64,000 nucleotides of DNA from a virus: the IMG/VR virus record IMGVR_UViG_3300031576_000013, positions 30,809 through 94,808 of that record; one strand, 5' to 3'. This document shows, piece after piece, positions 10,331 to 57,492 of the stretch. The notes beneath the pieces were generated by a model. That model did no database searches. It was not told the origin of the DNA and worked only from the letters and a program-made list of their open reading frames with translations. The position numbers were made by a program, and so were the translations under genes. How positions within the stretch are numbered: position 1 is the first letter of the stretch; every line of letters begins with the position of its first letter.

Positions 10331-10345
10331 CTTCTGGGTTCCCCG
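10331..10345 (-). repeat. Dispersed 15-bp motif CGGGGAACCCAGAAG, exact copy (intergenic)
   Basis: Plus strand reads CTTCTGGGTTCCCCG. Confidence 0.9.
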
Positions 10346-10355
10346 ATGGATTACT

Positions 10356-11432
10356 TTAAACCGCTCCGTAGTGCGGCGGGCGTACATAAGGGATAAGCAG
10401 CTGGTCAATGAAGTCGTCGCCGGTCAAACCGCCGAACGACCCGCGCCCTCCGATTCCACCACCGCCCGTACGTCCGAACGAGATCGCTTGATCGCGCGTC
10501 TTCGCGCTGCGTACGCTGCTAGGCGCGGTGATGAATGGATCTTGTCCGAAGGGATCTTGTAGGTTGCGGGTTGCGAAGGCGCCCACGGCGGTCGTGATGT
10601 CGGTCGGAGTTTTGCCCAGCGGACCGCCGTCGGGATCGGTGTATCCCCATACTCCGGTGACGAAGATTCCCTGCGAAGACAGCGGGAAGAATTCGGTCGA
10701 CTGGAACAGAATGCCTTCAAAGCGTTCGATCTCGATACGGGGATCGTCACGATCGTCGGGATCGAGGAGCCCTCCGAGGTGGCGGTTGTAGACGCGCAAG
10801 CCGTCCAGCGACACTTCGGTCAAAGACGCTTCGATGCCAGTCACGCCGGTTTCGATTTCTACTTTGTTGATCCCGACGATCGGGTGCTGGGGCATGAGGC
10901 GCCGATTTCCGCGCCCGTCGAGCTTGAACAGGCGATATCGCGGCTCGAAGAAACGGCCGGTCAGGAGCTCGACTTTTCTTGAAGCGCGATCGACGAATTC
11001 TTGAATCGCCCCGACGGACTGTTCCGTGAACAGCGCGTTGGTCTTCAAGGTAACCGAGTCGAGATACCCAACATACGCAGCCCCTCGAGAGAACTTGTTC
11101 TTGTCGACGACCTCGAAGCGTTGCCGGAACTCGAATTCCGTTGAGGTGCTGGTTTCTTTGTACTTCCAGCGGATCTCGTGGGTGCCCGCCCTGAAGCCGG
11201 TCGCGGCGAAGTTTGCATGGTACACGCCAAGGGCGATACGCACTCCGACGGGGTCGGGTGAGAGATCAAGCGTCGCTTCCGGGATCTTCTCGATCGCCGC
11301 GCCGGCCGGAGGGATCTCAAAAACGCTCCGTTTCAGCGAGAATATGTCGATCAGCTTGCCGTCACGCTGAAACGCAAAGAACAGCGTTGGATTTGCGCAG
11401 TTTATCGTCTCGTCCTGTGCGACGGCAGGCAT
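10356..11432 (-). CDS. Head-tail adaptor (neck) protein
   Basis: ASRKVELLTGRFF, LDGRG, VTGVWGY, TPTDI, TGDDFIDQLLIPY adaptor-like motifs with an N-terminal beta domain. Confidence 0.7.
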   Translation of the reverse strand: MPAVAQDETINCANPTLFFAFQRDGKLIDIFSLKRSVFEIPPAGAAIEKIPEATLDLSPDPVGVRIALGVYHANFAATGFRAGTHEIRWKYKETSTSTEFEFRQRFEVVDKNKFSRGAAYVGYLDSVTLKTNALFTEQSVGAIQEFVDRASRKVELLTGRFFEPRYRLFKLDGRGNRRLMPQHPIVGINKVEIETGVTGIEASLTEVSLDGLRVYNRHLGGLLDPDDRDDPRIEIERFEGILFQSTEFFPLSSQGIFVTGVWGYTDPDGGPLGKTPTDITTAVGAFATRNLQDPFGQDPFITAPSSVRSAKTRDQAISFGRTGGGGIGGRGSFGGLTGDDFIDQLLIPYVRPPHYGAV

Positions 11433-11442
11433 GTGTGCAACT

Positions 11443-11769
11443 TTACCATTTGCGGGGTTGGCTCAACGTGATCTTCTTGATCCTGCGCACCGCCGACGCG
11501 AACTTCGCGGATTCCGAGTTCACGAAATCGATTGCGAGCTGTTCAACACGGTTGTCTGGATCCAAGAACCGGAACATGAATTCCCGCTCATCGCGATAGG
11601 ATTCGGCAAGCGGCAAATCCCTCATTGAGAGGTAGGACGCGAGGTCGAGATCGTAGACTTCGACTTTGTTGTTGCCGATGACACTCCAACCCCGGGAACG
11701 ATCGACGCGGGTGCCCGCCCGAAAGGGCGGAGATTCACTCCCGTTTGGCTGACGCGGTGCGTTCACCAC
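11443..11769 (-). CDS. DUF5659-like small protein
   Basis: YDLDLASYL...FMFRF motif; start codon uncertain. Confidence 0.6.
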   Translation of the reverse strand: MVNAPRQPNGSESPPFRAGTRVDRSRGWSVIGNNKVEVYDLDLASYLSMRDLPLAESYRDEREFMFRFLDPDNRVEQLAIDFVNSESAKFASAVRRIKKITLSQPRKW

Positions 11770-11777
11770 GCACCGCT

Positions 11778-12226: not shown

Positions 12227-12264
12227 ATAAAAAGGCTCGCCGGTCAACGACCAGCGAGCCTTTT
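12227..12264 (-). terminator. Rho-independent terminator after capsid/decoration genes
   Basis: Minus strand AAAAGGCTCGCTGGTC-GTT-GACCGGCGAGCC-TTTTTATTTT; T/A tracts on both sides. Confidence 0.8.
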
Positions 12265-12282
12265 CTCAACCGCGATGGGCGG

Positions 12283-18100: not shown

Positions 18101-19725
18101 CCTTCGATTTCGAGCCAAATCGGCGGCTGTAGGGACTTCACGGCGGCGAACACGCGATTCGGCGCGTTCATTGGTTTATTCCAGTACGAGCCCTCCATGT
18201 TGAAGGTGACTGCGAGTCGTTTGCCTTCAGGTACGGTGTCTACATCAGGCACTTTTCCTGCGCGCTGGATCGCAAGCGTGAAACCCGTGAGGAAATCCTC
18301 GCCGGTCTTGACACGGAAATCTCCGTGAACCGACCGACCTCTGAAATGACTCTGGAATACGGCCGCGCGGGGTTCTTCCTTTTCGGGATAGATCAGGATT
18401 GGGTTCTGCTGCTTCTCGGCGTCTTCGTCGCGCATATCGACGACGCGTTTTTCGGCGACGGGATGGACGACGAGATCGTAGAGATCTACGTAGCTCGTGT
18501 ATGGACCGCAGCCACCGGTATCTGGATCGGAGTCGTCATGGAATTGAACTCGCTGCGAAATCTCCGGCGGTAGCATCCGACCGAGCCTGAACTTCAAAAC
18601 TTGCAGTGTCTTCTCATCAAGTGGTCCGTCGATGAGCACGTCGACGTCGTTCTTCGTTTCGCCGTTGTTCACGATCGAACCGACTAATCGAACGACCGGT
18701 GCGCGAATCAGGAAGGGCTTCTCGAAGTGTTTGAGAACTTCTTCGAGTTTGAGTGGCGGGTATTCGCCCGTCGATCCCGGATGGATCGGAGCATATCGAT
18801 CGGTCTTGCCCGCCTTCGAAATATCATCGGTTTCTTTGGTACGTGCCACGCCTGAAGGTCCAATCACGAGGGGCTTCCTGCGGCGAAGCCGACGCAGTTC
18901 GGCTTCGATTCCGAGTGGGTCTTCCACCTTGTCGACCAGCGCGCGAGCTTCGCGCGTCAGCTCGTCGTCAAAGGGGTGTTTCAAATCGCGCCGTGTGAAT
19001 TCTTCGATCATGAACGCTTCAGCGTTCACCAGATCTTCGCGGCCAACGCCTTCCGCCGACAGCTTGTCGTTACCAGCGAAAAGGCTTGCGAACGCGGCGT
19101 GCAATTCCCTGTCGAGCCGCTTGAGTTTTGCGTCATCGAAAGCCTTCAGGTTGCGAGGCGTGATCTCCGTCAGGTCGAACGTTGCGTGTTGACCCGGAAC
19201 CGTGTCCAGATCTGCCGTGGTCAGATCGCCCTCACCTTTTGCGACCGCCTCTTCTTCGAGATCGATCTCGGGGCCGTATCGCCGCCCGGGCGGTGTCTTC
19301 TTCAGCTCGATCGGAGGATCGAAAGCCCGAACCAGCTCCATCGGGATGTAGAACACCGGCTTGACCGGTTCGAACTCGGCCAGCGAGAACTTGTCGATCC
19401 CCTCACGCAGCTCCTTCGGGACGTCGTCGAGCGACGCGAACTCCTGCGGCTCTCGTAGAACCACGATCGCCCAGGCGAAGGTCGCCTTGGCCTCTGTCGG
19501 CTCGATCTCGTTTAGCAAGATCTGCGCTTCTCCGCTGCGTCCCTCTTGCTTGCGTCGAGACAGGACGCCTGCGCTCTTGTCCTCTTGAAGCCGTGCGACG
19601 AGCATTGGCGGGTCCGGCATCTTCAATACCGGCAGTGGGCCTGCCGGCATTTCGAACTTGCGCTGCTCTTCTGGGTTCCCCGGCAAGGGAACGACCGCCT
19701 CAACGTGGGCGTTCGGGGTCGACAT
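15181..19725 (-). CDS. Polyprotein: ASCH-like + NTase-like + LigD phosphoesterase-like + ATP-dependent DNA ligase + XkdF-like head maturation protease
   Basis: LVGS-x8-NDVDV; FQSHFRGRSVHGDFR; ligase motifs EPKLNGFR, LDAEF, IFDALY, EGAMLK, WAKIK; C-terminal GIVLEP..DAQND..EIRKAAH.F..H..ESY..GTW..GEFTGWSIGG. Confidence 0.85.
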   Translation of the reverse strand: MSTPNAHVEAVVPLPGNPEEQRKFEMPAGPLPVLKMPDPPMLVARLQEDKSAGVLSRRKQEGRSGEAQILLNEIEPTEAKATFAWAIVVLREPQEFASLDDVPKELREGIDKFSLAEFEPVKPVFYIPMELVRAFDPPIELKKTPPGRRYGPEIDLEEEAVAKGEGDLTTADLDTVPGQHATFDLTEITPRNLKAFDDAKLKRLDRELHAAFASLFAGNDKLSAEGVGREDLVNAEAFMIEEFTRRDLKHPFDDELTREARALVDKVEDPLGIEAELRRLRRRKPLVIGPSGVARTKETDDISKAGKTDRYAPIHPGSTGEYPPLKLEEVLKHFEKPFLIRAPVVRLVGSIVNNGETKNDVDVLIDGPLDEKTLQVLKFRLGRMLPPEISQRVQFHDDSDPDTGGCGPYTSYVDLYDLVVHPVAEKRVVDMRDEDAEKQQNPILIYPEKEEPRAAVFQSHFRGRSVHGDFRVKTGEDFLTGFTLAIQRAGKVPDVDTVPEGKRLAVTFNMEGSYWNKPMNAPNRVFAAVKSLQPPIWLEIEGRKFEAGEVGATAEEEGVIVRIARPQVTHLILKPFFAEYAVEGDQKFHGLLTFRLLVGRGDASEEEVETGRRTREGEAFWVAMFNKDLTPSVLRRRAIATKTLPPKGRSALPLGIKNAIPPEFRYWEKDKPSEVEATRNALIEAHLVTAETVQINRDFRLTLKTKKFWPSADIAPEIVEARTVEEAMDRIAATIATENATRLLKQLKAAPYTLTWQRFKGQVVIRAAPSSQVFHLFIKRGENEIEDFQLEGDPFENDKIAVIRRALTNVEADKLLAYEGDAPPGEKVHGVEFNPSKNTPSQMRILSRGKIEFLDDQRQFKKIRVRGGDLADVSDDGVFVLVAEEEAGDLWQWERGKQPSRAVPGEKITKAHEVRDVSLQDGTVIEDVQIWDPRKIKDADDKGGDRKELKPLAVFKPMKVAARKTNEFRGGELDRLHEDFATGALLDSGILVEPKLNGFRVALQKDGDRVFIITEEFFSRKTEQRNYMKNWPGVTAELAKLPGPFVLDAEFMEFVDGAATPRRDLARFRGTGVVDDANVQLQIFDALYLPDEGNITQKDQAERRRLLEAFLNKRQSSRIKLVPALGTARTHESLDSLIAKAAASPGSEGAMLKSANATYSLGGESDGWAKIKLIREVRGIVYDKHPVKDSPGVFNYFYAFGPIPEKEQGNWPNLIELAGKKYAPAGKSFNSKVKAESGDVLRIEVTEVLFNRMTAGKWKITGFTPTVIDVTDEAPMTVNEVVAMLNPDEIKKRASEPPPPLWDLGCQLQAKVSVEIEKPFAGFANFEACVADQKTRGHDEEAAHRICDALRRDYEKIVEKEATSSSTPVSKLELRPWTHAVKLFKAEETAKEERYVLGIVLEPETVDAQNDVYSSDEIRKAAHGFMERYGHIGLMHRKLIDGRVKILESYLAPLDFTVAEQPVKKGTWLLAARIVDDELWEAVKRGEFTGWSIGGTAIKEADPVYSILAAPFVT
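19668..19682 (-). repeat. Dispersed 15-bp motif, exact copy
   Basis: Near the 5' end of the polyprotein gene. Confidence 0.9.
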
Positions 19726-20362: not shown

Positions 20363-22146
20363 TTTTCAGGTATCTCCTCGCCGCCAGTTCCTATTCCGGC
20401 TAACCGTTTATCATCGCCAGCTTCCCTGCGCCCCTGTGCGTGCCCGTTTGGCTCCTGGCGATGTTCGGCCCGGCCTTCCGAGGCGATTTGACTTGTCAAA
20501 GCTCGAATCCTTCCAGCCACGCGCTCCCCCTCTTCTTCTGGATTCCTTGATGGGGAACCTTTTCGAGCTTCCTGAAGGGTCAACTTGAAGGGCTGTTGTG
20601 TCCACGGATCTGTCAAAACTGGCAGTTCGCGGTTGAACACGTCGGTCGCTAGCGCGCGGCCCTCAGCTGGTGTGAGAACGCCTGCGTCGGAGAGCGTAGC
20701 TACGATCTCGGCCAGCACTTCGGGATCTTTTGTCGTCGGAGAGTTGGACTCGAATTTCCAGAAGGAGATGTGAAGTTCAGGCAGTAACTTTCTATTTATC
20801 ACTTCGTCGAACTGGTTTCGCAGCGGGGTGAAGACTTGATCTTCAGCTAGACGCAATGCGGCAAAAGCCGTGGCGCGATTGATCGCCCGGTCGCGCCCCA
20901 CCAAAATTCGTGGCAATCGGAAGCTCGACCCGATTTTTTCCCAGTTGCCCTCGTCGTAGTTTTGAAACAATGCATCTTGCTGCTGCGCTTCGCGTAGCGG
21001 GACGAACTTCATCGACGGGACGATTCCAGACGTACCTCCGGTCGATTTTTGGCCTTCGGCTTCGAGGACAAGAATCTTGTGGAAGTTTTTTCGTCCTTTG
21101 ATGTTGCTCTCGATGAACTCCTCGATGCGCGGCACAACCCCTTTAGCAAGCCGTCCGCCAGCGACGAGCAGCGCAAGCGGAGGGACGGTCTTGCTCTGGA
21201 AATAACTGAGGTTCACCTCGTCCAGTTCCCGGGAACCCAGAACAGCGGGTAGATTGCCGATCCATTGAGGGACTCCGTAAGTGGAACCAGGCGTCGGGAT
21301 TGCGAAGTGCAAAATTTCGTTGGCGGGTGCGTCCAGTGGCGGCTTGTCGGGATCGGCTTCGAGTGCTGCCGGCGACGCATAAATCTTGCCTGTTGCTCGC
21401 GAGACGGTGCGTGGGTCGCCGAATTCTTTGAAATACGCCTTGATCTTGCCCTGAATCGGATCGATCTCGGCGAACTTGCGAAAGAATCGGCGTTGAACGA
21501 CTTCCGTCGTCGAGATGCGTGTGGTTGGAATGCGTTCTTTTGTCTCAACAGGGATCGGATCGAGGGGCAGCAAACGCATCGTCACCGACGGTGCGAGCAC
21601 CAACCGCGCCGGCATTATTCTGTTGTCGCGTAGGATTTCCCAATATGCGTTTCCAGTCGTCAGCAAGTCTCGACGTGTTCGAGAGCGCAGCTCGACGAAG
21701 GAGTAATCGGGGCAACAGACGGCAAAGAAGGTACGCAGGCGATTGATTTCGATGCGCGCAACTCTGCGTAATTCTTCGAGTTTTGCACGAACGGCTTCGG
21801 AATCCGGCTCGACGAACGGCTCGCGGCGTTCCTCGCTTAGAACCAACCGTTCGACGATCATCTCGTCCCGGATATCGGCTTCGGCACCAGGCCGTGTGAG
21901 GTCAATTCCGGCAGTGTATTTGTGGCCGAACGCGTCGACGTTCGTGACGATCGCCTCAATATGCTGAGACAGCGACGACGAAAGCTCGTAGAGCTGAAGC
22001 AGCGTTTCGGGCGCGTACTTCGGTTCGAGGACGCCGGTTACGGCCTTTCCTTTTTGAGTGAGCGCTGTGAGCCACTCCACGGTCGAGACGGGGGCGTCCC
22101 TAAAGGTCGCCTTTCCAACGACGTTTTTCTCTTTCTTTTTCGGCAC
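20359..22146 (-). CDS. Portal protein (PBSX/XkdE-like)
   Basis: DLLTTGNAYWEI.R, FKEFGDPR, NEILHF, YGVPQW, FRLP..LVG...NRATA. Confidence 0.93.
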   Translation of the reverse strand: MPKKKEKNVVGKATFRDAPVSTVEWLTALTQKGKAVTGVLEPKYAPETLLQLYELSSSLSQHIEAIVTNVDAFGHKYTAGIDLTRPGAEADIRDEMIVERLVLSEERREPFVEPDSEAVRAKLEELRRVARIEINRLRTFFAVCCPDYSFVELRSRTRRDLLTTGNAYWEILRDNRIMPARLVLAPSVTMRLLPLDPIPVETKERIPTTRISTTEVVQRRFFRKFAEIDPIQGKIKAYFKEFGDPRTVSRATGKIYASPAALEADPDKPPLDAPANEILHFAIPTPGSTYGVPQWIGNLPAVLGSRELDEVNLSYFQSKTVPPLALLVAGGRLAKGVVPRIEEFIESNIKGRKNFHKILVLEAEGQKSTGGTSGIVPSMKFVPLREAQQQDALFQNYDEGNWEKIGSSFRLPRILVGRDRAINRATAFAALRLAEDQVFTPLRNQFDEVINRKLLPELHISFWKFESNSPTTKDPEVLAEIVATLSDAGVLTPAEGRALATDVFNRELPVLTDPWTQQPFKLTLQEARKGSPSRNPEEEGERVAGRIRALTSQIASEGRAEHRQEPNGHAQGRREAGDDKRLAGIGTGGEEIPEK

Positions 22147-22551: not shown

Positions 22552-22616
22552 AATCTACAGCACTTACATAGGTCTTTGCAACGGCCCGACTTTTCGATAA
22601 GGTATGATCGCGAATG
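22552..22616. promoter_or_regulatory. Divergent promoter region between head operon and fibre cluster
   Basis: Plus strand GGTATGAT-5 nt-ATG (22614); minus strand TTGCAA-18-TAGATT upstream of 22533. Confidence 0.5.
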
Positions 22617-24719: not shown

Positions 24720-24723
24720 CGAC

Positions 24724-25419
24724 ATGGGCGCTTTCAGCCATACCAATTGGATTTGCGGCGAAATTTATTCGCGCGCTGTTCAATTCGTAGGCGCTGCACA
24801 AAGCGTGGGCCTTTACTTCGACGACTACATCGAGACCGAATCGCAACATCCGTTTGGCTGGGCGGCACAACTCGCGGCGGCTGGTGCGCTTGTTTTGCCC
24901 GCAGCAAGGTTGTCCGGCGTGATCCAGATGTCGTCCGGTGCGACGGCCTCGGGTGCCGCCGGAATTGCATCCGCCTCGCCGCTGGCCCGTTCGATCGGAA
25001 CGTCGAAGTGGTACTGGGCCTCGCGGCTGCGATTCACGACAGCGATCGACGCACAGACTTTCATGGGTGTTGGGTTGGCGGACGCCGTTTTGAGCCCGAC
25101 CGACATTTTTACGATCGGGATCCACGGGGACATCTCGACGGTCAACTTTACCGCGCGGCAGGTTGGTGCAGGAACCGCGTCGATAGATCTCGGCGTCGCG
25201 ATCGACACGAATACTTGGCATCTGTTCGAGCTTTACTGCAAAAGCGATTCGACAATTTATGCACGTGTCGATCGTGGCACAGAACAGTCGGTCGCGATGG
25301 GTACGTTGCCGTCCGCCGAGGATACGTTCGGCTTTCTCACGGCGAGGAACGGCTCGACGGCAGCCGATCGCGTCATGCAGGTCGATTACAGCGCTTGTCT
25401 ATATCCGCGTGATTCATAA
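24724..25419 (+). CDS. Virion protein, lectin-like beta sandwich
   Basis: YFDDY, NTWHLFE, MQVDY pattern; lies in fibre cluster. Confidence 0.55.
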   Translation: MGAFSHTNWICGEIYSRAVQFVGAAQSVGLYFDDYIETESQHPFGWAAQLAAAGALVLPAARLSGVIQMSSGATASGAAGIASASPLARSIGTSKWYWASRLRFTTAIDAQTFMGVGLADAVLSPTDIFTIGIHGDISTVNFTARQVGAGTASIDLGVAIDTNTWHLFELYCKSDSTIYARVDRGTEQSVAMGTLPSAEDTFGFLTARNGSTAADRVMQVDYSACLYPRDS

Positions 25420-25442
25420 ACCAATAAGGTCAAGGTGATCAA

Positions 25443-25865
25443 ATGAGCGAGCACAAGATCAAAGAAGAGAATCGAACGAAGATGTTCAAGATCGGCTTTT
25501 CGTTTCGCGAGCGTGTGGTGCTCGCGTTACATCTCCTTCAGAACATCAAGCCCGCTAACCGAAGCGACCGCAAGCGCTTCGATACGCTATTCAATGATTT
25601 AGGGCTGGATGACATCGCTGAACGCCTCGATGGCGGCGGTGGTATCTCTCCGAAGGAGACCCAGCGGCAAGATGTCACCGTTTTCGACGTCACCGGTGAA
25701 GTGATTGATTACCTGTATGAGAAGCTGGACGGCCCTTCGAATGGTCCAGCTACGTTGACGATCGCCGACATCGAGCGTCGAATCGAAGACGTCAAGGCTG
25801 ACCGCTATACGCCTCCTTTGGCCGAGAACCTTCCATCCGAAGAAGCGGCGCCAGCGCCGTCGTAA
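25443..25865 (+). CDS. Hypothetical protein (possible fibre chaperone)
   Basis: 140 aa, charged, with SD; in fibre cluster. Confidence 0.55.
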   Translation: MSEHKIKEENRTKMFKIGFSFRERVVLALHLLQNIKPANRSDRKRFDTLFNDLGLDDIAERLDGGGGISPKETQRQDVTVFDVTGEVIDYLYEKLDGPSNGPATLTIADIERRIEDVKADRYTPPLAENLPSEEAAPAPS

Positions 25866-25892
25866 CCGTCCTTCAAAAGAAAAAAAGGTGGT

Positions 25893-26660: not shown

Positions 26661-26667
26661 CGCAAAA

Positions 26668-29592
26668 ATGTCGATCCACAAAGCTCTAGCAGCTACCGAA
26701 ATCCACATTTTGTACGCGTTCTCGTTCGCGAGCGCCGCCGCTCGTGAAGGCGCGACTGGCTTGGTTGCAGCCGATGTCGGGAAGGTTGCATGGCAGACCG
26801 ACGATAATTCCTTCTGGGTTCTTACCGACGAGAGCCCGGTCACGTGGGTTTCGCTCGGCGGAAGCGGCGGTTTCGCTTCGTCGATCGCGATCAAAAATCA
26901 GTGCCGGGTGGCGAGCACCGCGAACATCGCATCTCTGTCGACGCTGTTGACGCTTGATGGCGTGACAGTCGCTGCCGGAGATCGCGTTCTCGTCAAGGAT
27001 CAAACAACGCTTAGTGAGAACGGCATCTACGTCGCCGCTGTCGGCGCCTGGACGCGAGCGAGCGACTTTGATTCCACCGCTGAGGTCAAAGGCGGCGTCC
27101 TTGTCGTTGTCTCGGAAGGCACGACGCAGTTTGATTCGATTTGGACGCTTGCGACCAACGATCCGATTACAGTCGGCGTCACCGGCCTGGTCTTCACTAC
27201 CGGTACGGTTACGCTCACAACGGCGGCGCCAGCCGATGTCACCAAAGCCGCAGCCGTCGTCGGCGTAGCGATTACCGCTGCCAGGGCCGATCACAAGCAC
27301 GACATCTCAACGGCTGCCGCCGCTGAATCTATCGATATTGGCGATACGGCCGCCGAAGGTTCTGCTTCTTCGCTTGCCCGCTCCGATCATCGTCACGCCT
27401 TCCCTGCTCCCTCTTCTGGGTACCCCGTCAATGTCGAGAATTCGGAATCTGATGGGACCGCGACGACGTCCGCCAGATCGGATCACCAACATAAGCTCGG
27501 CATTGGAACCACCAAGGGCGACGTTCTCGCGCATGATGGTACGACGTTTCAGCGGCTTCCGGTCGGGGTCGACAGTTTCGTCTTAACGGCCGACACCGCC
27601 GAAGCAAGCGGCGTCAAGTGGAACGCACCGAGTGCCGCCGACTGGCCGATTGGAACTGTTCGGTTCTTCATGCTTTCGCCCACCGGGTTGGACACGAACG
27701 TCGGTTTTGCCGATGGCGCTCCCGATGCTGCGAAAGCCGTCAAGACAATCGCTAAGTTGAAAACGCTGATCCCCCGTTTCGGCAACGGGCGTTCGGTCGT
27801 AATCGTGATCGAGGCTGGCGATTACTCTACCGAGGATCTCGAGTTCACCGATTACCATGCGTATCGGTTGTTTCTGGTACGTGGAACTGTGACCGATCCG
27901 ACAGGCGCATCTGTAGCGTTTGCCAATGACCTTGCAGACAAGATCGTCGATGGTTATGTCCGCGCACCAAGTACTGAAACGCTTGGTTACAGAGTCGATG
28001 GCGCTCCAACGGTCACATTATTTTCCTGCGTAAAAAACGTCGATGGTACTCCTCCCGGATTACCCGTCGAACCAGCCCTGCTCGGAATGCGTGTTCGCTT
28101 TGACGCCCTGACGCCGACCGTCGCATTGCGGAACGTGACGACGACTATCTGGAAAAACACTACAACTGCAATCACAGATTCAAATGATTTTCCAGCCGTA
28201 CCTGTAGCTGGCGGTCCTGGCGTCGGCGACGTTTTCTATATCGAGCGGCCTGGTGTCGACGTCGATCAGTTAGTGGTCGATGGTATGATAACGCGTACGA
28301 GGCTGGGAACATCGCCTACACCCATAGCGATCCCACCAATATTTTCAGGGATCAATGCTAAGGCTGTGACTACGCCGATCATAATACAGGGAAATGTTCG
28401 TATCGACCTGGTCGGTGTTCATGCTGCCGGAGCGACCGCACTTCCATTCACCGCGCAATACGTGCCAAATCTGCGAATGGTCGGCACGTACACCGATGAA
28501 GCTGGCGTCACGATAAGTGTCGGTAATGGCGGGCGGATTGTTGCGACAGCTAGCACAATCACCGCTTCGTTGACCAACGTTGGTGGGCTTTTTCAACGTA
28601 CCGCTTTTGTAGGCGGTTCAGGTGTTTTTGCAGCCGGCGGCGCGGGTCGAGCGTTCAACCTTTCCACCGGCAACGTCATCGTTGGCGGGCGTTTGGCGGC
28701 GTCAGGCGCCGGGAATCTGTTCAGCATCGGCAACGCCGGTGGCACCACCGCACGTCGACTTCGCTTCACGGCAAACACCGCCGGCGTCGATTTGGATTTG
28801 ACCGACGCCAACCATTTCAAGGTTTTTGGCGTCGAGAACGACACGTTACCCGCAGGGATTGGACCGATCCGCTTGAATGGAAACTTTCCTTCCGTCGACC
28901 TTGATGACGTCGTCATGAGTGCTGCTGGGTCAGGGTTCGGCTTGAATATGAATTGTCGTCATGCCCGCGTGAACATGGGCACGACGACGGCGATCACGAT
29001 TACAACTCCGACGGGACAGGAGATCATCTCGGGAACCGGCGGCGGCGGCCCGGTGTTCAGGTTTGCAGACGTTCAGGATCGTCATATTACCGTTAGGGAC
29101 GATCTCGGCAACGTCTTCACGAGACATCAAACTACCGATATCAACACAGCTCCCGAAATCGGGTTGACGCTCTCTGCGACTGCTTACCCATTATATGCGC
29201 AATTCAGAGTCGTACGGCGGGTAACCGGCGCGGCCGATGGAGAGTTCGGCGTCGCCAAGGCTGATGCGGCGAGCACGTCGGATCGCATTCTCGGTGTCCT
29301 GATGACAGATACGTTAGTCTCGCCGCGTGGGCGCATCGCAACACACGGTCCCGCAGTCTTGGAATTCGACGCGGACCCGGGAACTGCTCCCGCGCTCGTT
29401 TATTTATCGCACCTGGACGACGGCAGTATCGCAGGTTTGGGGCGAATCACGCCGCCACCCAGCAACGGTTTGAACCAAAAACTTCGTCTTGGACATTTGC
29501 TTCGCCGTTTAACGACGATCGCGCCGTTTCTCGGCGTCGTCGATCTGCATCCCGAGTTGATCCCGATAACATCGGACGGAGCAACGCCATAA
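26668..29592 (+). CDS. Large fibre protein (CRVA domain, ARxDHxH repeats, beta-helix-like region)
   Basis: KNQCRVASTANI..DRVLVKDQ..ENGIY; three ARxDHxH repeats; AKAVKTI motif preceding a beta-helix-like region. Confidence 0.75.
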   Translation: MSIHKALAATEIHILYAFSFASAAAREGATGLVAADVGKVAWQTDDNSFWVLTDESPVTWVSLGGSGGFASSIAIKNQCRVASTANIASLSTLLTLDGVTVAAGDRVLVKDQTTLSENGIYVAAVGAWTRASDFDSTAEVKGGVLVVVSEGTTQFDSIWTLATNDPITVGVTGLVFTTGTVTLTTAAPADVTKAAAVVGVAITAARADHKHDISTAAAAESIDIGDTAAEGSASSLARSDHRHAFPAPSSGYPVNVENSESDGTATTSARSDHQHKLGIGTTKGDVLAHDGTTFQRLPVGVDSFVLTADTAEASGVKWNAPSAADWPIGTVRFFMLSPTGLDTNVGFADGAPDAAKAVKTIAKLKTLIPRFGNGRSVVIVIEAGDYSTEDLEFTDYHAYRLFLVRGTVTDPTGASVAFANDLADKIVDGYVRAPSTETLGYRVDGAPTVTLFSCVKNVDGTPPGLPVEPALLGMRVRFDALTPTVALRNVTTTIWKNTTTAITDSNDFPAVPVAGGPGVGDVFYIERPGVDVDQLVVDGMITRTRLGTSPTPIAIPPIFSGINAKAVTTPIIIQGNVRIDLVGVHAAGATALPFTAQYVPNLRMVGTYTDEAGVTISVGNGGRIVATASTITASLTNVGGLFQRTAFVGGSGVFAAGGAGRAFNLSTGNVIVGGRLAASGAGNLFSIGNAGGTTARRLRFTANTAGVDLDLTDANHFKVFGVENDTLPAGIGPIRLNGNFPSVDLDDVVMSAAGSGFGLNMNCRHARVNMGTTTAITITTPTGQEIISGTGGGGPVFRFADVQDRHITVRDDLGNVFTRHQTTDINTAPEIGLTLSATAYPLYAQFRVVRRVTGAADGEFGVAKADAASTSDRILGVLMTDTLVSPRGRIATHGPAVLEFDADPGTAPALVYLSHLDDGSIAGLGRITPPPSNGLNQKLRLGHLLRRLTTIAPFLGVVDLHPELIPITSDGATP

Positions 29593-29915: not shown

Positions 29916-29916
29916 A

Positions 29917-34326: not shown

Positions 34327-34737
34327 ATGGAAAACGCGAACGATCTATGGTCCGTCTTCATGACGAAAGAGTTCGGCATCGCGTGCGTCGCGATCGTTGC
34401 GATCATGTGGACGCTGAAGAAGGCAGCCAAGCAGGCGGCCCCGGCCCTCTACATCAAAGGATGGTTTCAGGCGATCATGACGCTCCTCAACCTCGGTTTC
34501 GGTTGCGTCGTCGCGATTCCAAAGGACTTTTTGGTCGGCAAGACTTACGGTCAGCGCGTACTGCTTGGTTTGTGCGCGGGGCTACTCAGCCACACATTCT
34601 ATTCGGCGGTGATCAAGCGCATAACCGCATTCGTCGAAGGGCGTAGTACGGACAAAGAAGCAGCACGCACCAGCGCTTCGATCGCAGCAGTACCCGAATC
34701 GACGCCGAAGCCGGGGAACCCAGAAGGAGGGAAATAG
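34327..34737 (+). CDS. Holin-like membrane protein
   Basis: Three hydrophobic segments; directly upstream of the endolysin. Confidence 0.65.
   Translation: MENANDLWSVFMTKEFGIACVAIVAIMWTLKKAAKQAAPALYIKGWFQAIMTLLNLGFGCVVAIPKDFLVGKTYGQRVLLGLCAGLLSHTFYSAVIKRITAFVEGRSTDKEAARTSASIAAVPESTPKPGNPEGGK
34712..34726 (+). repeat. Dispersed 15-bp motif, exact copy
   Basis: 3' end of holin-like gene, at the endolysin RBS. Confidence 0.9.
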
Positions 34738-35403
34738 GTGGCTCGCATCAGCGAGATCGAACCACTTCACAAGGCGTTCCGTTCGAGACTCGAAAGAGTC
34801 CTGCGCGGACTCGCTTCGGAGCAGATCCCGCTGCGAGTCTACGAATCGGCGCGATCGCCATTTCGCCAAGCCGAGCTGTACGCTCGCGGCAGAGTCCCGG
34901 GTTACGGAACTCCTGGGCGGACGGTCACGAAAGCCTGCGCTTTCAGAAGTTTTCACCAGTACGGCCTAGCGGTCGATATGGTTTTCGATCTAGATCCAAC
35001 CAATCGCGACCAGTGGGTTTGGGGTATCCCCAAAAGTCAGGATCCGGTACTTCACGATCGCATCGAGAGTTGGTGGAAGCGGTACACGGAAATCTCCGGA
35101 AATGAAGGATTGATTCAGCTTTCCTTCGAGAAGCCTCACATCCAGCTGGGCGATACGAAGACCGAGCTTCCCAAATTGCTACGTGGTGAATATCCGCCTG
35201 GAGGCGGGTCGACTTGGGAAACGTGGTTCAACCAGCAAGTTCAAATCTGGGGACCGGCGGCCCGAAAAGAAATCGGCGTATCGCATCCAGGAGCACCGCC
35301 GAGTGTCACCGAACGCCCAGCATTCGACGCGGATTCGCCGGTCGACCCCGAATTGGTAGCGATGCTCGAGTCGTCTAACGCTGCCGATGAACAATCTGCC
35401 TGA
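34738..35403 (+). CDS. Endolysin, M15 family peptidase
   Basis: RS..RQ.ELYA.GR..PG..VT.A...SFHQYGLAVD...EKPHIQL. Confidence 0.9.
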   Translation: MARISEIEPLHKAFRSRLERVLRGLASEQIPLRVYESARSPFRQAELYARGRVPGYGTPGRTVTKACAFRSFHQYGLAVDMVFDLDPTNRDQWVWGIPKSQDPVLHDRIESWWKRYTEISGNEGLIQLSFEKPHIQLGDTKTELPKLLRGEYPPGGGSTWETWFNQQVQIWGPAARKEIGVSHPGAPPSVTERPAFDADSPVDPELVAMLESSNAADEQSA

Positions 35404-35665: not shown

Positions 35666-36895
35666 GAAAGCAAGAGCACGTGGTCGAGGGCTGGTTGCGA
35701 GGTTGATGAGCAGCTCCCGTCCTTCAACCCCACGCGCGATGGCCTGAAGATCGTCTTCCGGACCAGCCCATCCTACCGAGGAACAGAACGCATCCCAGCG
35801 CACTTGGGCTTCGCGCTGCCGCACAACCGCCTGTCTCGGCGGGGTGATCCATTCCAGCACACGAATGCCCGCGAGTGCGGTGTCGAGACTCTTCAAGTTC
35901 AGCTTCAGTTTAACGGCCGGGGGCGTCTCCGGCGGGTTGTACCAGATCGAAGCCCGGTCCACGCGCACCTTCACCAACGCGCCGAACAGCGTCTCCAACC
36001 CTCGCGCGGCCTTCCGGATGTCGTACTCGAGTGTCGCGGGGCCGCCTGCACCCCGATCGACATAGTGTTCTCCGATTGGCAGAGTCAGAATCGCGTGCTT
36101 GATCGCTTCATCCCGCCAGCCAAGCAACATCGCCGAGTTGATGAATGCGAGGCAATATTCCGATCGCTGTCCCCTTGGAATCGGCACCGCGAACCGCGAT
36201 ACCAAACTTTCGCCGCTACGCCTTTCCACCATCGGGGAACCCAGAACAGGTAGCCCCCCTTCTGGGATCCCCGTCGAGGTTACTTCGCCGATATCGGGCC
36301 ACAGTTCGCGCACTTTCGCGTCGATCAGACTCGATGAATACTTCCGGCTTCCATCGAGCCACGCCAGATAGACCTCGCGAGGAGTATCCATTTTCCAGCA
36401 AACGGAACCTGGCAGGCGAAGAATCCGTGCGGGGTCGTGTACCGGGTCCGAATTCAGTGCGAGCTGCAAACGCCGCATACGCTCGCGGACTTCAGGTCCA
36501 GGTTCTTCAGGCTCGTTGAGGAGCCAATACAGGTGAAGTCCGCGCGAGGTTCTGACACAAGCGGATGCCGGGACGCCGGCTTTGGCCAACGCTTGGCAAG
36601 CGGGCCATGAGCCCTCCGGATCGTCTATGTCTGCAATGAAAGAGGAGTACGCTGCTACATCTTGATTGCGCCCGCGACATTCCTTACGCGGGTTGACGCC
36701 GAAGTAGATGTTGTAACGCTCCCTGTTTCTGCTTGCGGCCCATGATAGCGCGGGGGCAAGGTGATCCGGGCGTAAGGGGATCTTCAGAAATAGCGGTCGT
36801 AGCGCGTCGTCTTTCGTGATCGCACGGAATTCGCCCCAGCTTCCAGGAAGCGACCATAGTTCCTGGATGAGCGGAATTGTACTTTCAGCTAACAA
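35642..36895 (-). CDS. RepB-type primase (AEP superfamily)
   Basis: IYFGVNPR, ADID, TSRGLHLYW, DPARILRLPGS, RGQRSE. Confidence 0.85.
   Translation of the reverse strand: MLAESTIPLIQELWSLPGSWGEFRAITKDDALRPLFLKIPLRPDHLAPALSWAASRNRERYNIYFGVNPRKECRGRNQDVAAYSSFIADIDDPEGSWPACQALAKAGVPASACVRTSRGLHLYWLLNEPEEPGPEVRERMRRLQLALNSDPVHDPARILRLPGSVCWKMDTPREVYLAWLDGSRKYSSSLIDAKVRELWPDIGEVTSTGIPEGGLPVLGSPMVERRSGESLVSRFAVPIPRGQRSEYCLAFINSAMLLGWRDEAIKHAILTLPIGEHYVDRGAGGPATLEYDIRKAARGLETLFGALVKVRVDRASIWYNPPETPPAVKLKLNLKSLDTALAGIRVLEWITPPRQAVVRQREAQVRWDAFCSSVGWAGPEDDLQAIARGVEGRELLINLATSPRPRALAFLPLRASA
36233..36273. repeat. Inverted pair of the dispersed motif (1 mismatch each)
   Basis: CGGGGAACCCAGAAC-11 bp-CTTCTGGGATCCCCG in the primase linker. 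Confidence 0.85.
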
Positions 36896-53184: not shown

Positions 53185-54632
53185 CGCCTACCCAAGCACA
53201 ATATTAATACGCACAGCACAGCAAACCCGGCGAGAATCCACTTGACGACAGGCGGCATCGCGTTGGCCGCGTCATATGCCGCCACATCTGTGATGTCAAT
53301 CGAACGCACGCTTGGCGTATCGGTGGGCAAGGGGGTGACGGTATAGCCGGCCTCAACGTAAGCCTCGTAGCGCTCCCTGGTGTGATTCTCCAGCCATCTG
53401 TGTCCGTAATCGGCAAAATCATAGAGATCGAACGTAACCTTTGTCCCGTCGGGGCGCGTACCACGGCCCAAACGTTGGATCGCTTCGATGAAGCTGCGCC
53501 CCGCCGACGCGATGATCACAGATCGGATTTCAGGCGCATCGACACCCTCGTAGAAAACGCTGGATGCAACTATCGCTTTGGTTTGGCCGCCTCGTAAACG
53601 CGCGATTGCTGCATGACGAACAGCGGCGGGCGTGTGTCCATTGATCCACTCGACACGGTAATCCGGCAGCGAAGCCAGTCGCTTGGTCAGGATTTCACCG
53701 TGCAGACGTTCCTTCACAAAGATGATTGCCGGCGTGGGCGCCCGCCGCGCGATTTCGAGCAGCGCAGCATTGCGGGCTTCCGAAAATACGATAGTCGATC
53801 TGTAAAAATCGTGCCAATCTTGGAAGCCTGACGTTTGCCTTAATACCGTCCAGATCACCCTCGGCGGTACGATGTGGCCTTGTTCGACGAGCGTTTTGGC
53901 CGGGATCTCGTAGATTACAGGCCCGAGCAAGCCGACAGTTCTAACGTTTTGTTCGTCACCTCGGAGCAGTGGCGTAGCCGAAAGACCCAAACGCCAGTAC
54001 GCGTTGTAAGCCCTGGCAATTGTACGACTCGTCGTCAACCCCGGCGCTCTGTGAGCTTCGTCCACTAACAGACCTTCAGCTTCAAGTAGCAGGCGCCCCC
54101 CTTCTGGGTTCCCCGGCGATATCAAGGATTGATATGTGGCACACACAACGCGATGCTTCGTTGATTTTCGGCCGCCTCGAAATTCGCCGATTTCTTCATT
54201 CAAGAGCTGCTGCATCTTGTGAGCTGTTTGTTCGACCAAATTTGAACGGTGTACAACGTACAACCAGCGACAAGGCAACGCGGCGGCAAACCCCGTGGCG
54301 ATGATTGTTTTACCGCCACCGGTTGGTACTTTGATCAGACCGCGCGTTTTTTCGATTCCGGCTGCGACGGCGGCGTTTTGATAATTCCGCAAGTAGGGCG
54401 GCAGTTCTTTGGACGTACAAGGTATCGTACGTTCATCGATCAACGGCACTTTTAGGCTCTCTGCCATTATCTGCGCGATGCCGGATGCAAAGCCGCCATT
54501 TACGCTGCGCAGTCCGTAACCACCCTCGAGCGGTTCTTCGATCTGATCTAGAACAACGTCGATGGCGCTACGATCACCTTCTGGAAAGGTCCAAACGTTT
54601 CCCATGCGAAGGATGGTTGATGTTCGCGTCAC
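53181..54632 (-). CDS. SF2 DEAH helicase (UvsW/Rad25-like) with hydrophobic C-terminus
   Basis: LRNYQ, PTGGGKT, DEAH, SATP, EGVD.P, QRLGRGTR. Confidence 0.9.
   Translation of the reverse strand: MTRTSTILRMGNVWTFPEGDRSAIDVVLDQIEEPLEGGYGLRSVNGGFASGIAQIMAESLKVPLIDERTIPCTSKELPPYLRNYQNAAVAAGIEKTRGLIKVPTGGGKTIIATGFAAALPCRWLYVVHRSNLVEQTAHKMQQLLNEEIGEFRGGRKSTKHRVVCATYQSLISPGNPEGGRLLLEAEGLLVDEAHRAPGLTTSRTIARAYNAYWRLGLSATPLLRGDEQNVRTVGLLGPVIYEIPAKTLVEQGHIVPPRVIWTVLRQTSGFQDWHDFYRSTIVFSEARNAALLEIARRAPTPAIIFVKERLHGEILTKRLASLPDYRVEWINGHTPAAVRHAAIARLRGGQTKAIVASSVFYEGVDAPEIRSVIIASAGRSFIEAIQRLGRGTRPDGTKVTFDLYDFADYGHRWLENHTRERYEAYVEAGYTVTPLPTDTPSVRSIDITDVAAYDAANAMPPVVKWILAGFAVLCVLILCLGRR
54101..54115 (-). repeat. 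Dispersed 15-bp motif, exact copy
   Basis: Inside the SF2 helicase gene. Confidence 0.9.
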
Positions 54633-54934
54633 TATTTTTTCTCAGTTATTTTGCGGTAAAGTGTAAGAGCTTCGGACGCACCCACAGGTAAATTCATCGT
54701 TTCCAAAATCGCGCCAGCGGTTGTGCTATATTCCTCTTTCACGTACGACTGTACACTTAACCAGTTTACCCAAGCGCAACCACCGAACTTGATATATTTC
54801 AGCTTTGATTTACCTTGTTTTAACCAATGACTAACCGTAGATGGCGATAAATAGAAAAGACCACCAACGACACCTGCTCGCAAGTAACCGTTTACAGCCA
54901 TGATTTCTTCGCGACCCGGGCTTATTATTGCCAT
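54632..54934 (-). CDS. Putative HTH DNA-binding regulator (excisionase/MerR-like)
   Basis: YL......F.LSPSTVSHW.KQGK...I.FG; first gene of the leftward replication operon. Confidence 0.6.
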   Translation of the reverse strand: MAIISPGREEIMAVNGYLRAGVVGGLFYLSPSTVSHWLKQGKSKLKYIKFGGCAWVNWLSVQSYVKEEYSTTAGAILETMNLPVGASEALTLYRKITEKK

Positions 54935-54940
54935 GTTTCA

Positions 54941-54969
54941 ATCATACCAAGTCTTTGATACGCTGTCAA
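54941..54969 (-). promoter_or_regulatory. Sigma70 promoter, leaderless, for the replication operon
   Basis: TTGACA-17-TATGAT with extended TG, 6 nt before ATG 54934; no SD. Confidence 0.8.
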
Positions 54970-54991
54970 CAGTTGATCTAGACGCATTCTC

Positions 54992-55019
54992 TTGAAACGC
55001 TTGCGTTGTGGGGTAGAAT
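54992..55019 (+). promoter_or_regulatory. Sigma70 promoter, leaderless, for the terminase genes
   Basis: TTGAAA-16-TAGAAT, 6 nt before ATG 55026; no SD. Confidence 0.65.
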
Positions 55020-55025
55020 GCGGCT

Positions 55026-55841
55026 ATGAGTGAAGACCTTCCACAAAACCAGAAAAAGCTTAGAGATCGGCGCCGTTCGATAACCGGTGAGATCTACGCA
55101 AGGCTGGTCAAGGCGTATCTCAAGCAGGAGGTTCCGACGAAGGAGTCCTTGGTAGAAGCGACTGGCGTGGCAACAACCGTGGCCAAACGCGCGATGCGTA
55201 TCGGTTGGCCGGAATTGGGGCTGCCCCCGCTGTCCATGGCGACGCAGCAGCTTGCCAACATCGAGGAAGTCAACCGGCTGATGTCCAAGATGGTCGTGGA
55301 TAAGCAAGAGATCGTAAAGACGTTGTTCGATGGGATTTCCAAGTCGGTTCCGGCACCTGGTCCCGACGACGTCAACGCCGTTGCCGAGGAAGCCAGTAGA
55401 CGCGCCGCCGAAAGCGCGATGGCGGCCCGCAGGCAGATGGCCTCCGCTGGCAAGGCAGCGCAGGCGGTCGAAGCATTGGCCGATGCGTTTTTAGCCAAAA
55501 TTGAAAAAGGCGAGTGGGAGATTCCGGAGAAGATTCGTCCCGAACACGTCTTTTTGCTCTCGAAGGCCGCCGACACCATCGCGGGCGCGGTGCATAAAGC
55601 GACGCAAACCGAACGGCTGCGCGCTGGTCAGCCTGAGCAGATCGTCGGTGCACATATCACAAGCCTAATTGTCGGCGCGACGCCTGAAGAGCTGCGTTTC
55701 ATCGCTGAGCACGGAACGTTGCCACCGCGATTGATGGGTGTCAGTGGTCAGATAACGTCGCTACCTGTAATCGACGTCGATGCAACAGTGCCATCGGAAA
55801 ATGCTGATGACGCTTTAGAGGCTTTGCCCGATGAAAAGTGA
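55026..55841 (+). CDS. Probable terminase small subunit
   Basis: N-terminal HTH-like segment, helical body; overlaps the terminase large subunit start. Confidence 0.6.
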   Translation: MSEDLPQNQKKLRDRRRSITGEIYARLVKAYLKQEVPTKESLVEATGVATTVAKRAMRIGWPELGLPPLSMATQQLANIEEVNRLMSKMVVDKQEIVKTLFDGISKSVPAPGPDDVNAVAEEASRRAAESAMAARRQMASAGKAAQAVEALADAFLAKIEKGEWEIPEKIRPEHVFLLSKAADTIAGAVHKATQTERLRAGQPEQIVGAHITSLIVGATPEELRFIAEHGTLPPRLMGVSGQITSLPVIDVDATVPSENADDALEALPDEK

Positions 55842-57492
55842 CACGGGGAACCCAGAAGAGGGGCAGCCGTTGGGCGCCGAAAGCGAGGGCGCGAAGGCGG
55901 TTAATTCGAACAAACGCAAGAAAATGATCGACGCAGCAGCGGCTGCAAAGGCCGAGGAAGTTTGGACAAGTACAGCGCTCAAGACGATGGCGGAAGGGAA
56001 ACGCCATGCGATCAGACATACGCGCGATCGATCGCAACTGGAAGCCATTGCGGTCGCGAAGCTGGTTGAGCAGATCCGCGAAGCTCAGAAAGATCCCGTC
56101 GCATTCGTAGAATTTGCGATGCGTACACCTCGCGGGGATCGATTGGCACTCGCGCCGTTTCACAAGGAGTGGTTACGCGCGATGCATTCTAAATCGCGTG
56201 TAATCATCGAAGCGCCTCGAGGTCATGGAAAAACTAGCTGCGTAATTGGATACGCGTTATTTGCGCTCGGCGCAAATTCAAACCTCAGAATAAAATTTGT
56301 TTGCCAGAACGACGCGAGAGCGAAGGAACGCTTGTTCGAGTTCAGAACGAATTTAGAGTCCAATCCCGCATTGAAAATGGTGTTTCCGAATCTTAAACAG
56401 GCCGATGTTGGCGACTGGACGAAGACGAAATTGTACGTGGAGCGCGAAGCGCGAACCCGCGATCCTTCGTTCGAGGCTATTGGGATTCTCAGCTCCGTCA
56501 CTGGCAGCCGTCCGGATCTGGTGATCTGCGATGACATCGCCGATCTGCGTAACGCAATTTTGTACCCGGCGCTTCGTGAGGACGTGAAGCAGAAGTTTTT
56601 CGGCGAACTCGAACCCGCGATGGAGGTCGACGGGCGAATTATCGCGATTTGTACTCCGTATCACGCTGCCGACATCAACGCGGTCTTGAAAGCGAATTCA
56701 GAATGGACTTACGTGCGGCATGTGGTTGGCGATGCGTCGGATCCGTTCAAGCCGTTGTGGCCGGAACATTGGTCCCGCGATAAGCTCGAAGGTATGCGAC
56801 GTAGAGTCGGTTCTGTCGAGTTTGCACGAGCGTATCAATGTGTCGCGTTGTCGGGTGACGTTGTTCCGTGTCGACCCGAATGGATTAAGTACTATGACAA
56901 GGAGCTGCTCGGCGACCCAAACGCCTTGATTTGCGTTCAAGGCTACGACCTCGCGATTTCACAAGCGACATCGGCTGATTATTTCGCGTGCGTTACGCTG
57001 CTTTATTCGACAGAAAAGAATCTGGTGTTCGTCGCCGATGCTTTCAAAGGCCGTTTGTCTTTTGCAGACCAAGGAATGACGGTCATCAATAATGCTCAGC
57101 GATGGCGGCCAGATAAGATCTCGATTGAAAGCGTGGGCCTCGGAGGGGCGCTTGAAAACTTCCTGCGTGAGCGTGCGCCTGTACCGCTGCCCTTATTTCC
57201 ATATCGACCTCGGGGCGACAAGCAACGTAGGTTCTTGGAGACCACACCGCTTTTCGAAGATGGCCGCGTGTTCTTTCATCCGAACCTGGATCCCCAACGG
57301 AACGTCCTGATAGCGGATCGCGGCGATCTGATTAGCGAACTACTGGAATTCCCGTTGAGCAAACACGACGACATGGTCGACGCTTTTACGTGTGCGGTCC
57401 AAGCCCTCTCCGAGTTCAGGGTAGCCGAACCCGAAGAGGGCTGGACTCAAGGTGAAAGTACCCGAGTACGACTATCCGTCCTCGGCAGCTGA
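55831..57492 (+). CDS. terL: Terminase large subunit
   Basis: APRGHGKT, VICDD, TPYH..D, LWPE, YDLA, DYFA, HDDMVDA. Confidence 0.93.
   Translation: MKSDTGNPEEGQPLGAESEGAKAVNSNKRKKMIDAAAAAKAEEVWTSTALKTMAEGKRHAIRHTRDRSQLEAIAVAKLVEQIREAQKDPVAFVEFAMRTPRGDRLALAPFHKEWLRAMHSKSRVIIEAPRGHGKTSCVIGYALFALGANSNLRIKFVCQNDARAKERLFEFRTNLESNPALKMVFPNLKQADVGDWTKTKLYVEREARTRDPSFEAIGILSSVTGSRPDLVICDDIADLRNAILYPALREDVKQKFFGELEPAMEVDGRIIAICTPYHAADINAVLKANSEWTYVRHVVGDASDPFKPLWPEHWSRDKLEGMRRRVGSVEFARAYQCVALSGDVVPCRPEWIKYYDKELLGDPNALICVQGYDLAISQATSADYFACVTLLYSTEKNLVFVADAFKGRLSFADQGMTVINNAQRWRPDKISIESVGLGGALENFLRERAPVPLPLFPYRPRGDKQRRFLETTPLFEDGRVFFHPNLDPQRNVLIADRGDLISELLEFPLSKHDDMVDAFTCAVQALSEFRVAEPEEGWTQGESTRVRLSVLGS
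55844..55858 (+). repeat. Dispersed 15-bp motif, exact copy
   Basis: 5' end of terL; the match to the 10331 copy extends to CGGGGAACCCAGAAGAGGGG. Confidence 0.9.

Follow-up and report, generated by a model that had tools for sequence, protein, structure and literature searches.

What purpose might be served by a short asymmetric word that recurs throughout the genome of one large myovirus-like phage, between genes as well as inside them? The question arises from a 64,000-nucleotide (nt) stretch of viral DNA, hereafter the window, which comprises bases 30809-94808 of a 94,808-bp viral contig (IMG/VR record IMGVR_UViG_3300031576_000013; CheckV completeness 64%) and contains five exact copies of the 15-mer CGGGGAACCCAGAAG. 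An earlier note on this window had described the word as a genome-wide motif polarised with transcription, and had proposed that it is selected as nucleic acid and is either bound by a phage or host protein or active in the mRNA. The reading that we favour, although we would not go so far as to call it probable, is a network of sites for one phage-encoded protein in which the word would double as a ribosome-binding site. We favour a protein that reads double-stranded DNA because antisense copies are written into genes by codon choice, two copies form an inverted pair, the core is a quasi-dyad and no RNA-level signature was found.

Occurrence, extent and specificity of the word

All five exact 15-mers lie where the earlier note had placed them (Table 1), and none appeared in 100 dinucleotide shuffles. 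Its one-mismatch (27413, 36233 and 36259) and two-mismatch (21229) copies are likewise all present; as for its weaker relatives, the one at 20535 is there with three mismatches, whereas those at ~15812 and ~39892 have four to five and are noise. Altogether, 12 sites with at most three mismatches were found in the window against 1.75 expected. The network is genome-wide, as had been claimed: the core GGGAACCCAGA is the commonest 11-mer of the whole contig (n = 15; 0.025-0.033 expected under Markov models of orders 1-4, an enrichment of ~500-fold), and nine more are found in the 30 kb preceding the window, which brings the total in the contig to ~18-19, 15 of them with the exact core.

Alignment of 19 copies yielded a full word of 21-24 nt, (T)CAT-C[C/G]GGGAACCCAGAAG-[A/G]GGGG, in which information is high across the 15-mer and still amounts to 0.7-1.3 bits at the G-rich positions +15 to +19, so that the 3' G-rich extension reported earlier is real. 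The core can be written as a quasi-dyad, TC(N)GGG-AA-CCCAGA. Three copies in the left arm have 20 nt more in common on their 5' side, starting from the stop codon of the upstream gene, and thus form a 40-nt stop-to-start cassette. Self-comparison of the contig revealed no dispersed repeat longer than 30 nt, and the word is therefore a short one in its own right and not the end of a larger element.

The word is private to this phage. When IMG/VR was searched with the 15-mer (C or G at position 2), only single chance matches in unrelated contigs were obtained, and the 18-mer that includes the G-run gave 10 single matches in 596 Gb of sequence from 185,579 bacterial and archaeal species genomes, being repeated in none. 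Since no species genome repeats the motif, a host genome-organising or translocase protein, one of the readers suggested in the earlier note, was rejected. The motif was also absent from IMG/VR relatives recognised by TerL (at most 39% identity). TerL relatives at 57-62% identity and a 116.8-kb version of this phage exist; the closest relative whose DNA was compared is a metagenome contig (L176) with a TerL 58% identical, in which the synteny of helicase and small orphan gene, divergent from a TerS-like gene and TerL, is kept (L176 6818-11464). This contig contains neither the word nor a comparable repeat, and has an ATGA overlap at its TerS/TerL junction. One motif-like string in L176 was rejected as ordinary coding for a conserved SGNFEFPE peptide.

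Gene junctions and the ribosome-binding site

At seven co-directional junctions (Table 1) the word either makes up the spacer between stop and start or runs over the end of the upstream gene; it fills the entire 28-46-nt gap at five of them, and all seven copies are in the sense orientation. Six junctions have the G-run as their sole Shine-Dalgarno (SD) sequence, ordinary genes of this phage using GGAG(G), and the gaps from G-run to start codon in the six best junctions are 3, 6, 6, 1, 6 and 6 nt. The start of an open reading frame (ORF) of at least 100 amino acids (aa) lies 9-19 nt downstream of 7 of the 15 exact cores, compared with 7.7% of random positions (P = 6e-5; P = 7.5e-6 in a stricter test of start association), and the coding-potential frame switches at the word for TerL, the 178-aa gene and Baseplate_J. 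From position, spacing and the lack of any other SD sequence, we infer that the 3' end of the word acts as the ribosome-binding site at these six junctions.

Five of the seven genes so served can be recognised as late (TerL, endolysin, baseplate wedge, Baseplate_J and fibre-like Big_5), and the 178-aa gene follows the adaptor-like gene (neck/tail). The copies in the leftward structural operon, which spans 37 kb, look as if they fall at module boundaries, the modules running in the order portal block, polyprotein and head genes, neck/tail, baseplate wedge, Baseplate_J and fibre-like genes. The conserved CAT could also start genes on the opposite strand, a reading that was rejected; the ORFs concerned are mostly of 5-16 aa, and the 115-aa example at contig 8541 is less plausible than a 110-aa gene on the + strand.

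Table 1. Copies of the word and other sequence features; positions are those of the window unless marked as contig positions.
Feature	Position	Strand or orientation	15-mer (start; match)	Context
Junction copy	contig 8542	sense		next gene 80 aa, its start ~24 nt past the G-run
Junction copy	contig 22749	sense		next gene a 437-aa fibre-like Big_5 protein
Junction copy	contig 26427	sense		next gene Baseplate_J
Junction copy	contig 30256	sense		next gene a 115-aa baseplate wedge subunit
Junction copy	10324..10355	-	10331; exact	fills all 32 nt between a 358-aa head-tail adaptor-like gene (10356..11432; stop codon) and the 178-aa gene (9787..10323; ATG); 1 nt separates G-run and ATG
Junction copy	34712..34737	+	34712; exact	overlaps the last 9 codons of a 136-aa gene; then endolysin (34738..35403), with GGAGGG 6 nt before GTG
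Junction copy	55842..55869	+	55844; exact	fills the 28 nt between the 271-aa TerS-position gene (TGA) and TerL (TTG, 55870); G-run end to TTG 6 nt
Copy at 5' end of ORF	19668..19682	-	19668; exact	1514-aa prohead-protease polyprotein ORF; without G-run; codons 15-19 if the start is ATG 19725, 19 nt upstream if it is ATG 19650
Intragenic copy	54095..54115	-, sense	54101; exact	with GGGGGG; XPB/RAD25-like helicase, between motif Ib and DEAH
Inverted pair	36233..36273	both	36233 (+) and 36259 (-); one mismatch each	11 nt apart; 13-bp hairpin/palindrome in a 417-aa primase-polymerase-like gene
Intragenic copy	27413..27427	-, antisense	27413; one mismatch	with G-run; 974-aa fibre gene, by codon choice over FPAPSSGYPV
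Intragenic copy	21229..21243	+, antisense	21229; two mismatches (AGAAC subtype)	inside portal gene
Weak relative	20535..20549	-	20535; three mismatches	inside portal gene; possibly chance
Intragenic copy	contig 29768	antisense		528-aa gene
Other copy	contig 15873			~85 nt upstream of the ribbon-helix-helix gene, then thymidylate kinase
Terminator-like hairpin	12229-12265	-		strong, intrinsic type, 17-bp stem then T-run; just downstream of capsid-region genes, in the middle of the structural operon
Tandem repeat	contig 1-57			~5.5 copies of TATGGTCATA
Palindrome	contig 1764-1818			55 bp
Palindrome	contig 3370-3405			GATCC-based; adjoins the motif copy at contig 3423
Dinucleotide run	62820-62847			(AC)n
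Tandem repeat	63368-63507			54-bp period

Junctions of this kind would equally be produced by a start-associated element acting at the level of the mRNA, where a phage protein or RNA, or the ribosome directly, would bind the word beside the SD sequence and set the translation of selected late genes, the intragenic copies being decoys, decay sites or by-products. A G-run that is the sole SD sequence 1-6 nt from six starts, junction copies that are all sense and the association with starts speak for such an element. CAGAAGAGGGG could also pair with a 16S rRNA 3' tail, should that of the host end in CCUCCUUUCU. There are precedents in the proposal made for the SAS repeats of Cluster K mycobacteriophages (PMC3203893) and in the repeat of phage Mordin (PMC4611695). 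We regard this explanation as possible, if doubtful, in view of the intragenic copies described below.

Alternatively, a junction cassette could have spread by ectopic recombination or module exchange and have been kept as a working ribosome-binding site, with no specific reader. The 40-nt cassette common to the three left-arm copies would fit, as would the direct repeat around the copy at contig 26427, yet no general duplication pattern exists, intragenic copies are not at junctions, and a plain GGAG would suffice as ribosome-binding site, which leaves the conservation of the 5' 15 nt unexplained; such an origin is in our opinion very improbable. The direct repeat in question (ACAGTCAT, 8 nt) flanks the copy ahead of Baseplate_J (contig 26415-26460), where a 7-bp hairpin with GUAA as its loop can also form in the 5' flank, and neither feature recurs at other copies. 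Target-site duplications showed no pattern beyond this one 8-nt case, and a mobile mini-element was rejected on that ground and on the lack of any dispersed repeat of more than 30 nt.

Copies inside genes and the choice of codons

About half of the copies are not at gene starts (helicase, primase-polymerase, fibre, portal and contig positions 3423, 10216 and 15873). Those in the helicase and primase-polymerase genes replace residues and add none: by comparison with solved XPB structures, the helicase copy aligns to a variable helix without any gain in length, and the inverted pair sits, again with no extra length, in the hypervariable inter-domain linker of the primase-polymerase gene. The 417-aa ORF that holds this pair is a single real gene, since six homologues (398-414 aa) could be aligned with it, five of them end to end.

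The copy in the 974-aa fibre gene, where PSSGYP is encoded by CCC TCT TCT GGG TAC CCC G, can be compared with a paralogous 501-aa fibre, which reads FPAPTAGYPV and encodes PTAGYP by CCG ACA GCT GGC TAT CCA G. Nearly every codon differs, so that the peptide is kept and the motif is missing; its absence from the paralogous repeat (near 30670) had been observed in the earlier note. The one core mismatch of the fibre copy falls in the Tyr codon, where the perfect base would make Phe. Likewise, GNPE in long ORFs is always encoded by the somewhat rare codons GGG AAC CCA GAA (0.012 expected per site from codon usage), in agreement with the identical codons noted earlier. Because the paralogue keeps the peptide without the word and the GNPE codons are identical, selection or copying acts on nucleotides and not on the GNPE peptide, and the corresponding claim of the earlier note is upheld. 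Sense coding copies are always in the G-N-P-E frame, likely because the other two frames would give AGA/AGG arginine codons in a row. This constancy would suit a GNPE peptide tag; however, the identical codons, the in-frame stops that precede several copies and the other peptides encoded by antisense copies all contradict a tag, which, together with binding sites for a host protein, is refuted for practical purposes.

The earlier note had presented the word as polarised with transcription. This is true of all five exact copies, each co-oriented with its local genes, but it is not general: among the intragenic copies that are certain, two are sense (the helicase copy and one arm of the primase-polymerase pair) and four antisense (the other arm, fibre, portal and the 528-aa gene). 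Polarity thus holds only at junctions, as would be expected if the word must supply the SD sequence between genes. Use as a ribosome-binding site at junctions forces the sense orientation and would therefore explain the apparent polarity, which need not be a property of whatever reads the word.

With two sense and four antisense copies inside genes, a purely mRNA-level signal does not explain the intragenic sites. Such a signal also fits poorly with the roughly half of the copies that lie away from any start, with the exact copy and G-run found midway through a helicase domain, and with antisense copies of which one is built by codon choice.

A further explanation is that the word marks DNA sites unrelated to expression (nick sites of the T5 or phiKMV type, or recombination, architectural or replication-initiator sites), tolerated mainly between genes. 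Dispersed, phage-private sites of ~20 bp on both strands would be natural for this, and among the genes of the phage are an HNH endonuclease gene and those of many nucleases and helicases. The position of the pair in a primase-polymerase linker recalls origins within initiator genes, of which the lambda ori in gene O is an example. Against it, the G-run at SD distance from six starts and the service of the first genes of late modules are left unexplained, motif orientation did not switch around the inverted pair when an origin-centred arrangement was looked for, and there is no target-site duplication pattern; we consider the explanation unlikely.

Searches for RNA structures, promoters and factors

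No shared RNA fold was detected among the copies, the only recurrent pairing being a 3-bp CCC/GGG helix, and the variable second position shows no covariation. The word has no match in Rfam even at E ≤ 10, nor does the window contain any Rfam family; resemblances to 5S rRNA helix III and to the 16S h45 loop were dismissed as superficial. A phage small RNA carrying an anti-motif was also rejected, complementary copies being found only inside genes. The RegA, S21 and NusG families gave no match in the contig (here, as in the searches below, 64% complete). The lack of a conserved RNA structure, of these genes and of any intergenic anti-motif that could be a small RNA all tell against an mRNA-level element.

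The sigma70-like promoters of the phage lie at operon starts, and no copy of the word overlaps any of them (54941-54969, 54992-55019 and ~22570-22613). Three good ones end 5-6 nt before an ATG (TATGAT-tgaaac-ATG, TAGAAT-gcggct-ATG and TATGAT-cgcga-ATG; 54935-55025 and ~22570-22616), which implies leaderless mRNAs, predicted here for the 100-aa gene, the 271-aa TerS-position gene and a 701-aa gene. An ECF-type or sigma54-type promoter reading of GGAAC was rejected, as no second conserved element is found at the proper spacing.

Could the word itself be a phage-specific middle or late promoter? Its polymerase or sigma-like factor would then be encoded in the missing third of the genome, and transcripts would start in or just after the word, with short SD leaders. 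Copies ahead of the first genes of successive morphogenetic modules, of TerL and of endolysin would be accounted for, intragenic and antisense copies are natural for promoters, and promoters abutting starts would suit a phage in which sigma70-like promoters stand 5-6 nt from ATG. For single-subunit polymerases, moreover, it is typical that the initially transcribed region is conserved and G-rich. However, the word is G+C-rich without an A+T-rich melting segment, there is no -35/-10 at proper spacing, the distance from core to start varies from 9 to 29 nt, and the pair at 36233/36259 would be promoters directed at one another across 11 bp. Searches of the contig with PF00940 (RNA_pol) and with the sigma domains PF04542 and PF08281 (Sigma70_r2 and r4_2) gave no match, the control search with PF00940 having matched none of 14 control genomes, which makes the RNA_pol negative a weak one. 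We hold a promoter to be improbable.

The only small DNA-binding candidates in the contig are a ribbon-helix-helix protein and a 100-aa orphan whose predicted fold is poor. The latter (54632..54934) is the helix-turn-helix protein that the earlier note had put forward as reader; with no Pfam match, a pLDDT of 45 and no database relatives it is a weak candidate, all the more because the syntenic small gene of L176, 28% identical to it, occurs in a relative that lacks the motif. The ribbon-helix-helix gene, seemingly unannotated (65 aa; contig 15591-15788, - strand, outside the window; RHH_1, E = 2e-6) is directly upstream of thymidylate kinase; its start is overlapped by a 28-codon ORF, and a motif copy lies ~85 nt upstream of it.

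A proposed network of sites for one phage-encoded protein

Under the reading that we prefer, a single sequence-specific protein encoded by the phage would recognise the word as double-stranded DNA. Sites required between genes would have been merged with the ribosome-binding site, giving the sense orientation and hence the apparent polarity. Bound at a junction copy, the protein would cover the DNA of the ribosome-binding site of the first gene in a late module and could thereby gate the entry of RNA polymerase, with an effect like that of a stoperator or a module insulator, whereas the intragenic copies might add occupancy or block transcription within early genes.

Several observations weigh against this proposal. 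No protein that binds the word was identified in the contig, and the dyad is imperfect, its 3' half being much better conserved, which makes a symmetric dimer unlikely. Junction copies would look alike if the signal acted on mRNA, and the antisense copies could be by-products of ectopic conversion instead of selected sites. The sites are sparse for a silencing network and overlap no sigma70-like promoter, and neither the fibre operon (22614-33000) nor the replication operon (48087-36900), both of 12 kb, contains a sense copy.

Two exact copies (54101-54115 and 55844-55858) are mirror-placed about position 54980, at 826 and 825 nt from the -10 ends of the divergent sigma70-like promoters 54941-54969 (-) and 54992-55019 (+), and at 819 and 818 nt from the two ATGs (rough chance ~0.01). 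The left copy of this pair is written into a coding loop of the helicase. A more elaborate and quite improbable scheme would have one protein and one 21-24-bp word act as DNA gate and ribosome-binding site at once, the mirror pair bracketing the control region as a 1.73-kb loop or insulated domain. If true, this would represent genome-wide module gating in a large, apparently lytic myovirus, in which the properties of stoperators and of start-associated repeats are combined.

The phage and further features of the contig

The gene set of the contig is that of a large contractile-tailed (myovirus-like) phage. Structural and packaging genes include those for tail sheath, Baseplate_J, a baseplate wedge subunit, a tape-measure-like protein, portal and TerL, as well as the 1514-aa polyprotein, which ends in an XkdF-type prohead protease; lysis and replication are represented by a VanY-like endolysin, a family A DNA polymerase and the HNH endonuclease. 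Several of the helicases and nucleases carry inteins, and no tRNA genes were found in the contig. TerL is only ~25% identical to those of the closest cultured phages. Further hairpins, palindromes and repeats are given in Table 1; among these, the tandem repeat at the start of the contig may represent an end of the genome, a terminal repeat or an artefact of assembly.

Comparison with known systems

In phage-specific late promoters (e.g. T4 late, TATAAATA, or class III of T7 and SP6) an A+T-rich melting site is paired with a phage sigma factor or polymerase. The word resembles these in being private, co-oriented with transcription and situated just upstream of late genes and inside upstream genes, but it has no A+T-rich melting site, and no phage sigma factor or polymerase was found in the contig.

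The stoperators of L5 and of further phages in Cluster A, to which the earlier note had likened the word, comprise more than 20 asymmetric sites present in all modules, located in short intergenic spaces, oriented with transcription and read by one phage protein (PMC9283540; PMC6550527). In L5, a temperate phage with a two-domain repressor, such sites are densely distributed and also overlap the early promoter, as the operator (PMC9283540; PMC6550527). The analogy stands for the junction copies, which are asymmetric, lie in short intergenic spaces and are oriented with transcription. It does not extend further: no promoter carries the word, two 12-kb operons are without a sense copy, the word carries an SD sequence, and neither an integrase (Phage_integrase) nor an L5-type repressor was found in the 64%-complete contig.

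Mordin, a Felix O1-like Citrobacter myophage, has a 26-bp repeat of unexplained function upstream of eight genes (PMC4611695). The two cases share a myophage genome and a long private repeat directly upstream of translational starts, with GGAG in Mordin; the Mordin repeat is unrelated in sequence, is confined to hypothetical genes of the left arm and has no reported intragenic or antisense copies (PMC4611695).

The closest parallels are with the SAS/ESAS repeats of Cluster K mycobacteriophages, which are short, asymmetric and cluster-private, with 11-19 copies per genome (Pope et al., 2011, PMC3203893; 2025 survey, PMC12699233). They occupy the position of a ribosome-binding site, 3-7 nt before the start codon and almost always in a single orientation there, with an SD-like core and conserved bases unable to pair with 16S rRNA, and a subset has a longer 5' extension; the SAS sequence is GGGATAGGAGCCC, only ~5% lie inside ORFs, they are restricted to the non-structural arm of temperate siphoviruses and their function is unexplained (PMC3203893; PMC12699233). 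Like SAS, the word is an asymmetric private repeat (~18-19 copies, with no more than single matches in species genomes and unrelated phages), a subset is extended further on the 5' side, six copies place an SD G-run 1-6 nt before a start, and copies at starts have one orientation (seven of seven at junctions). Unlike SAS, it is unrelated in sequence, belongs to a myovirus-like phage and at junctions mostly serves late genes for structure, packaging and lysis (TerL, baseplate, neck/tail, fibre-like and endolysin), and about half of its copies are away from starts, including antisense copies by codon choice and intragenic copies of mixed orientation.

The word therefore resembles SAS and stoperators in part and fails at least one defining feature of each. 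Private repeated words at phage gene starts are widespread, as SAS, stoperators and the Mordin repeat illustrate, and apart from L5 they are unexplained. What the present case adds is that polarity can be a side effect of a word doubling as a ribosome-binding site, that intragenic copies made by codon choice in either orientation point to a reader of double-stranded DNA, and that the genes marked by junction copies are the first of successive late modules. Should a single reader protein be found, it would offer a simple way into the timing or insulation of assembly modules in a large phage, and a means of addressing the older question posed by SAS.

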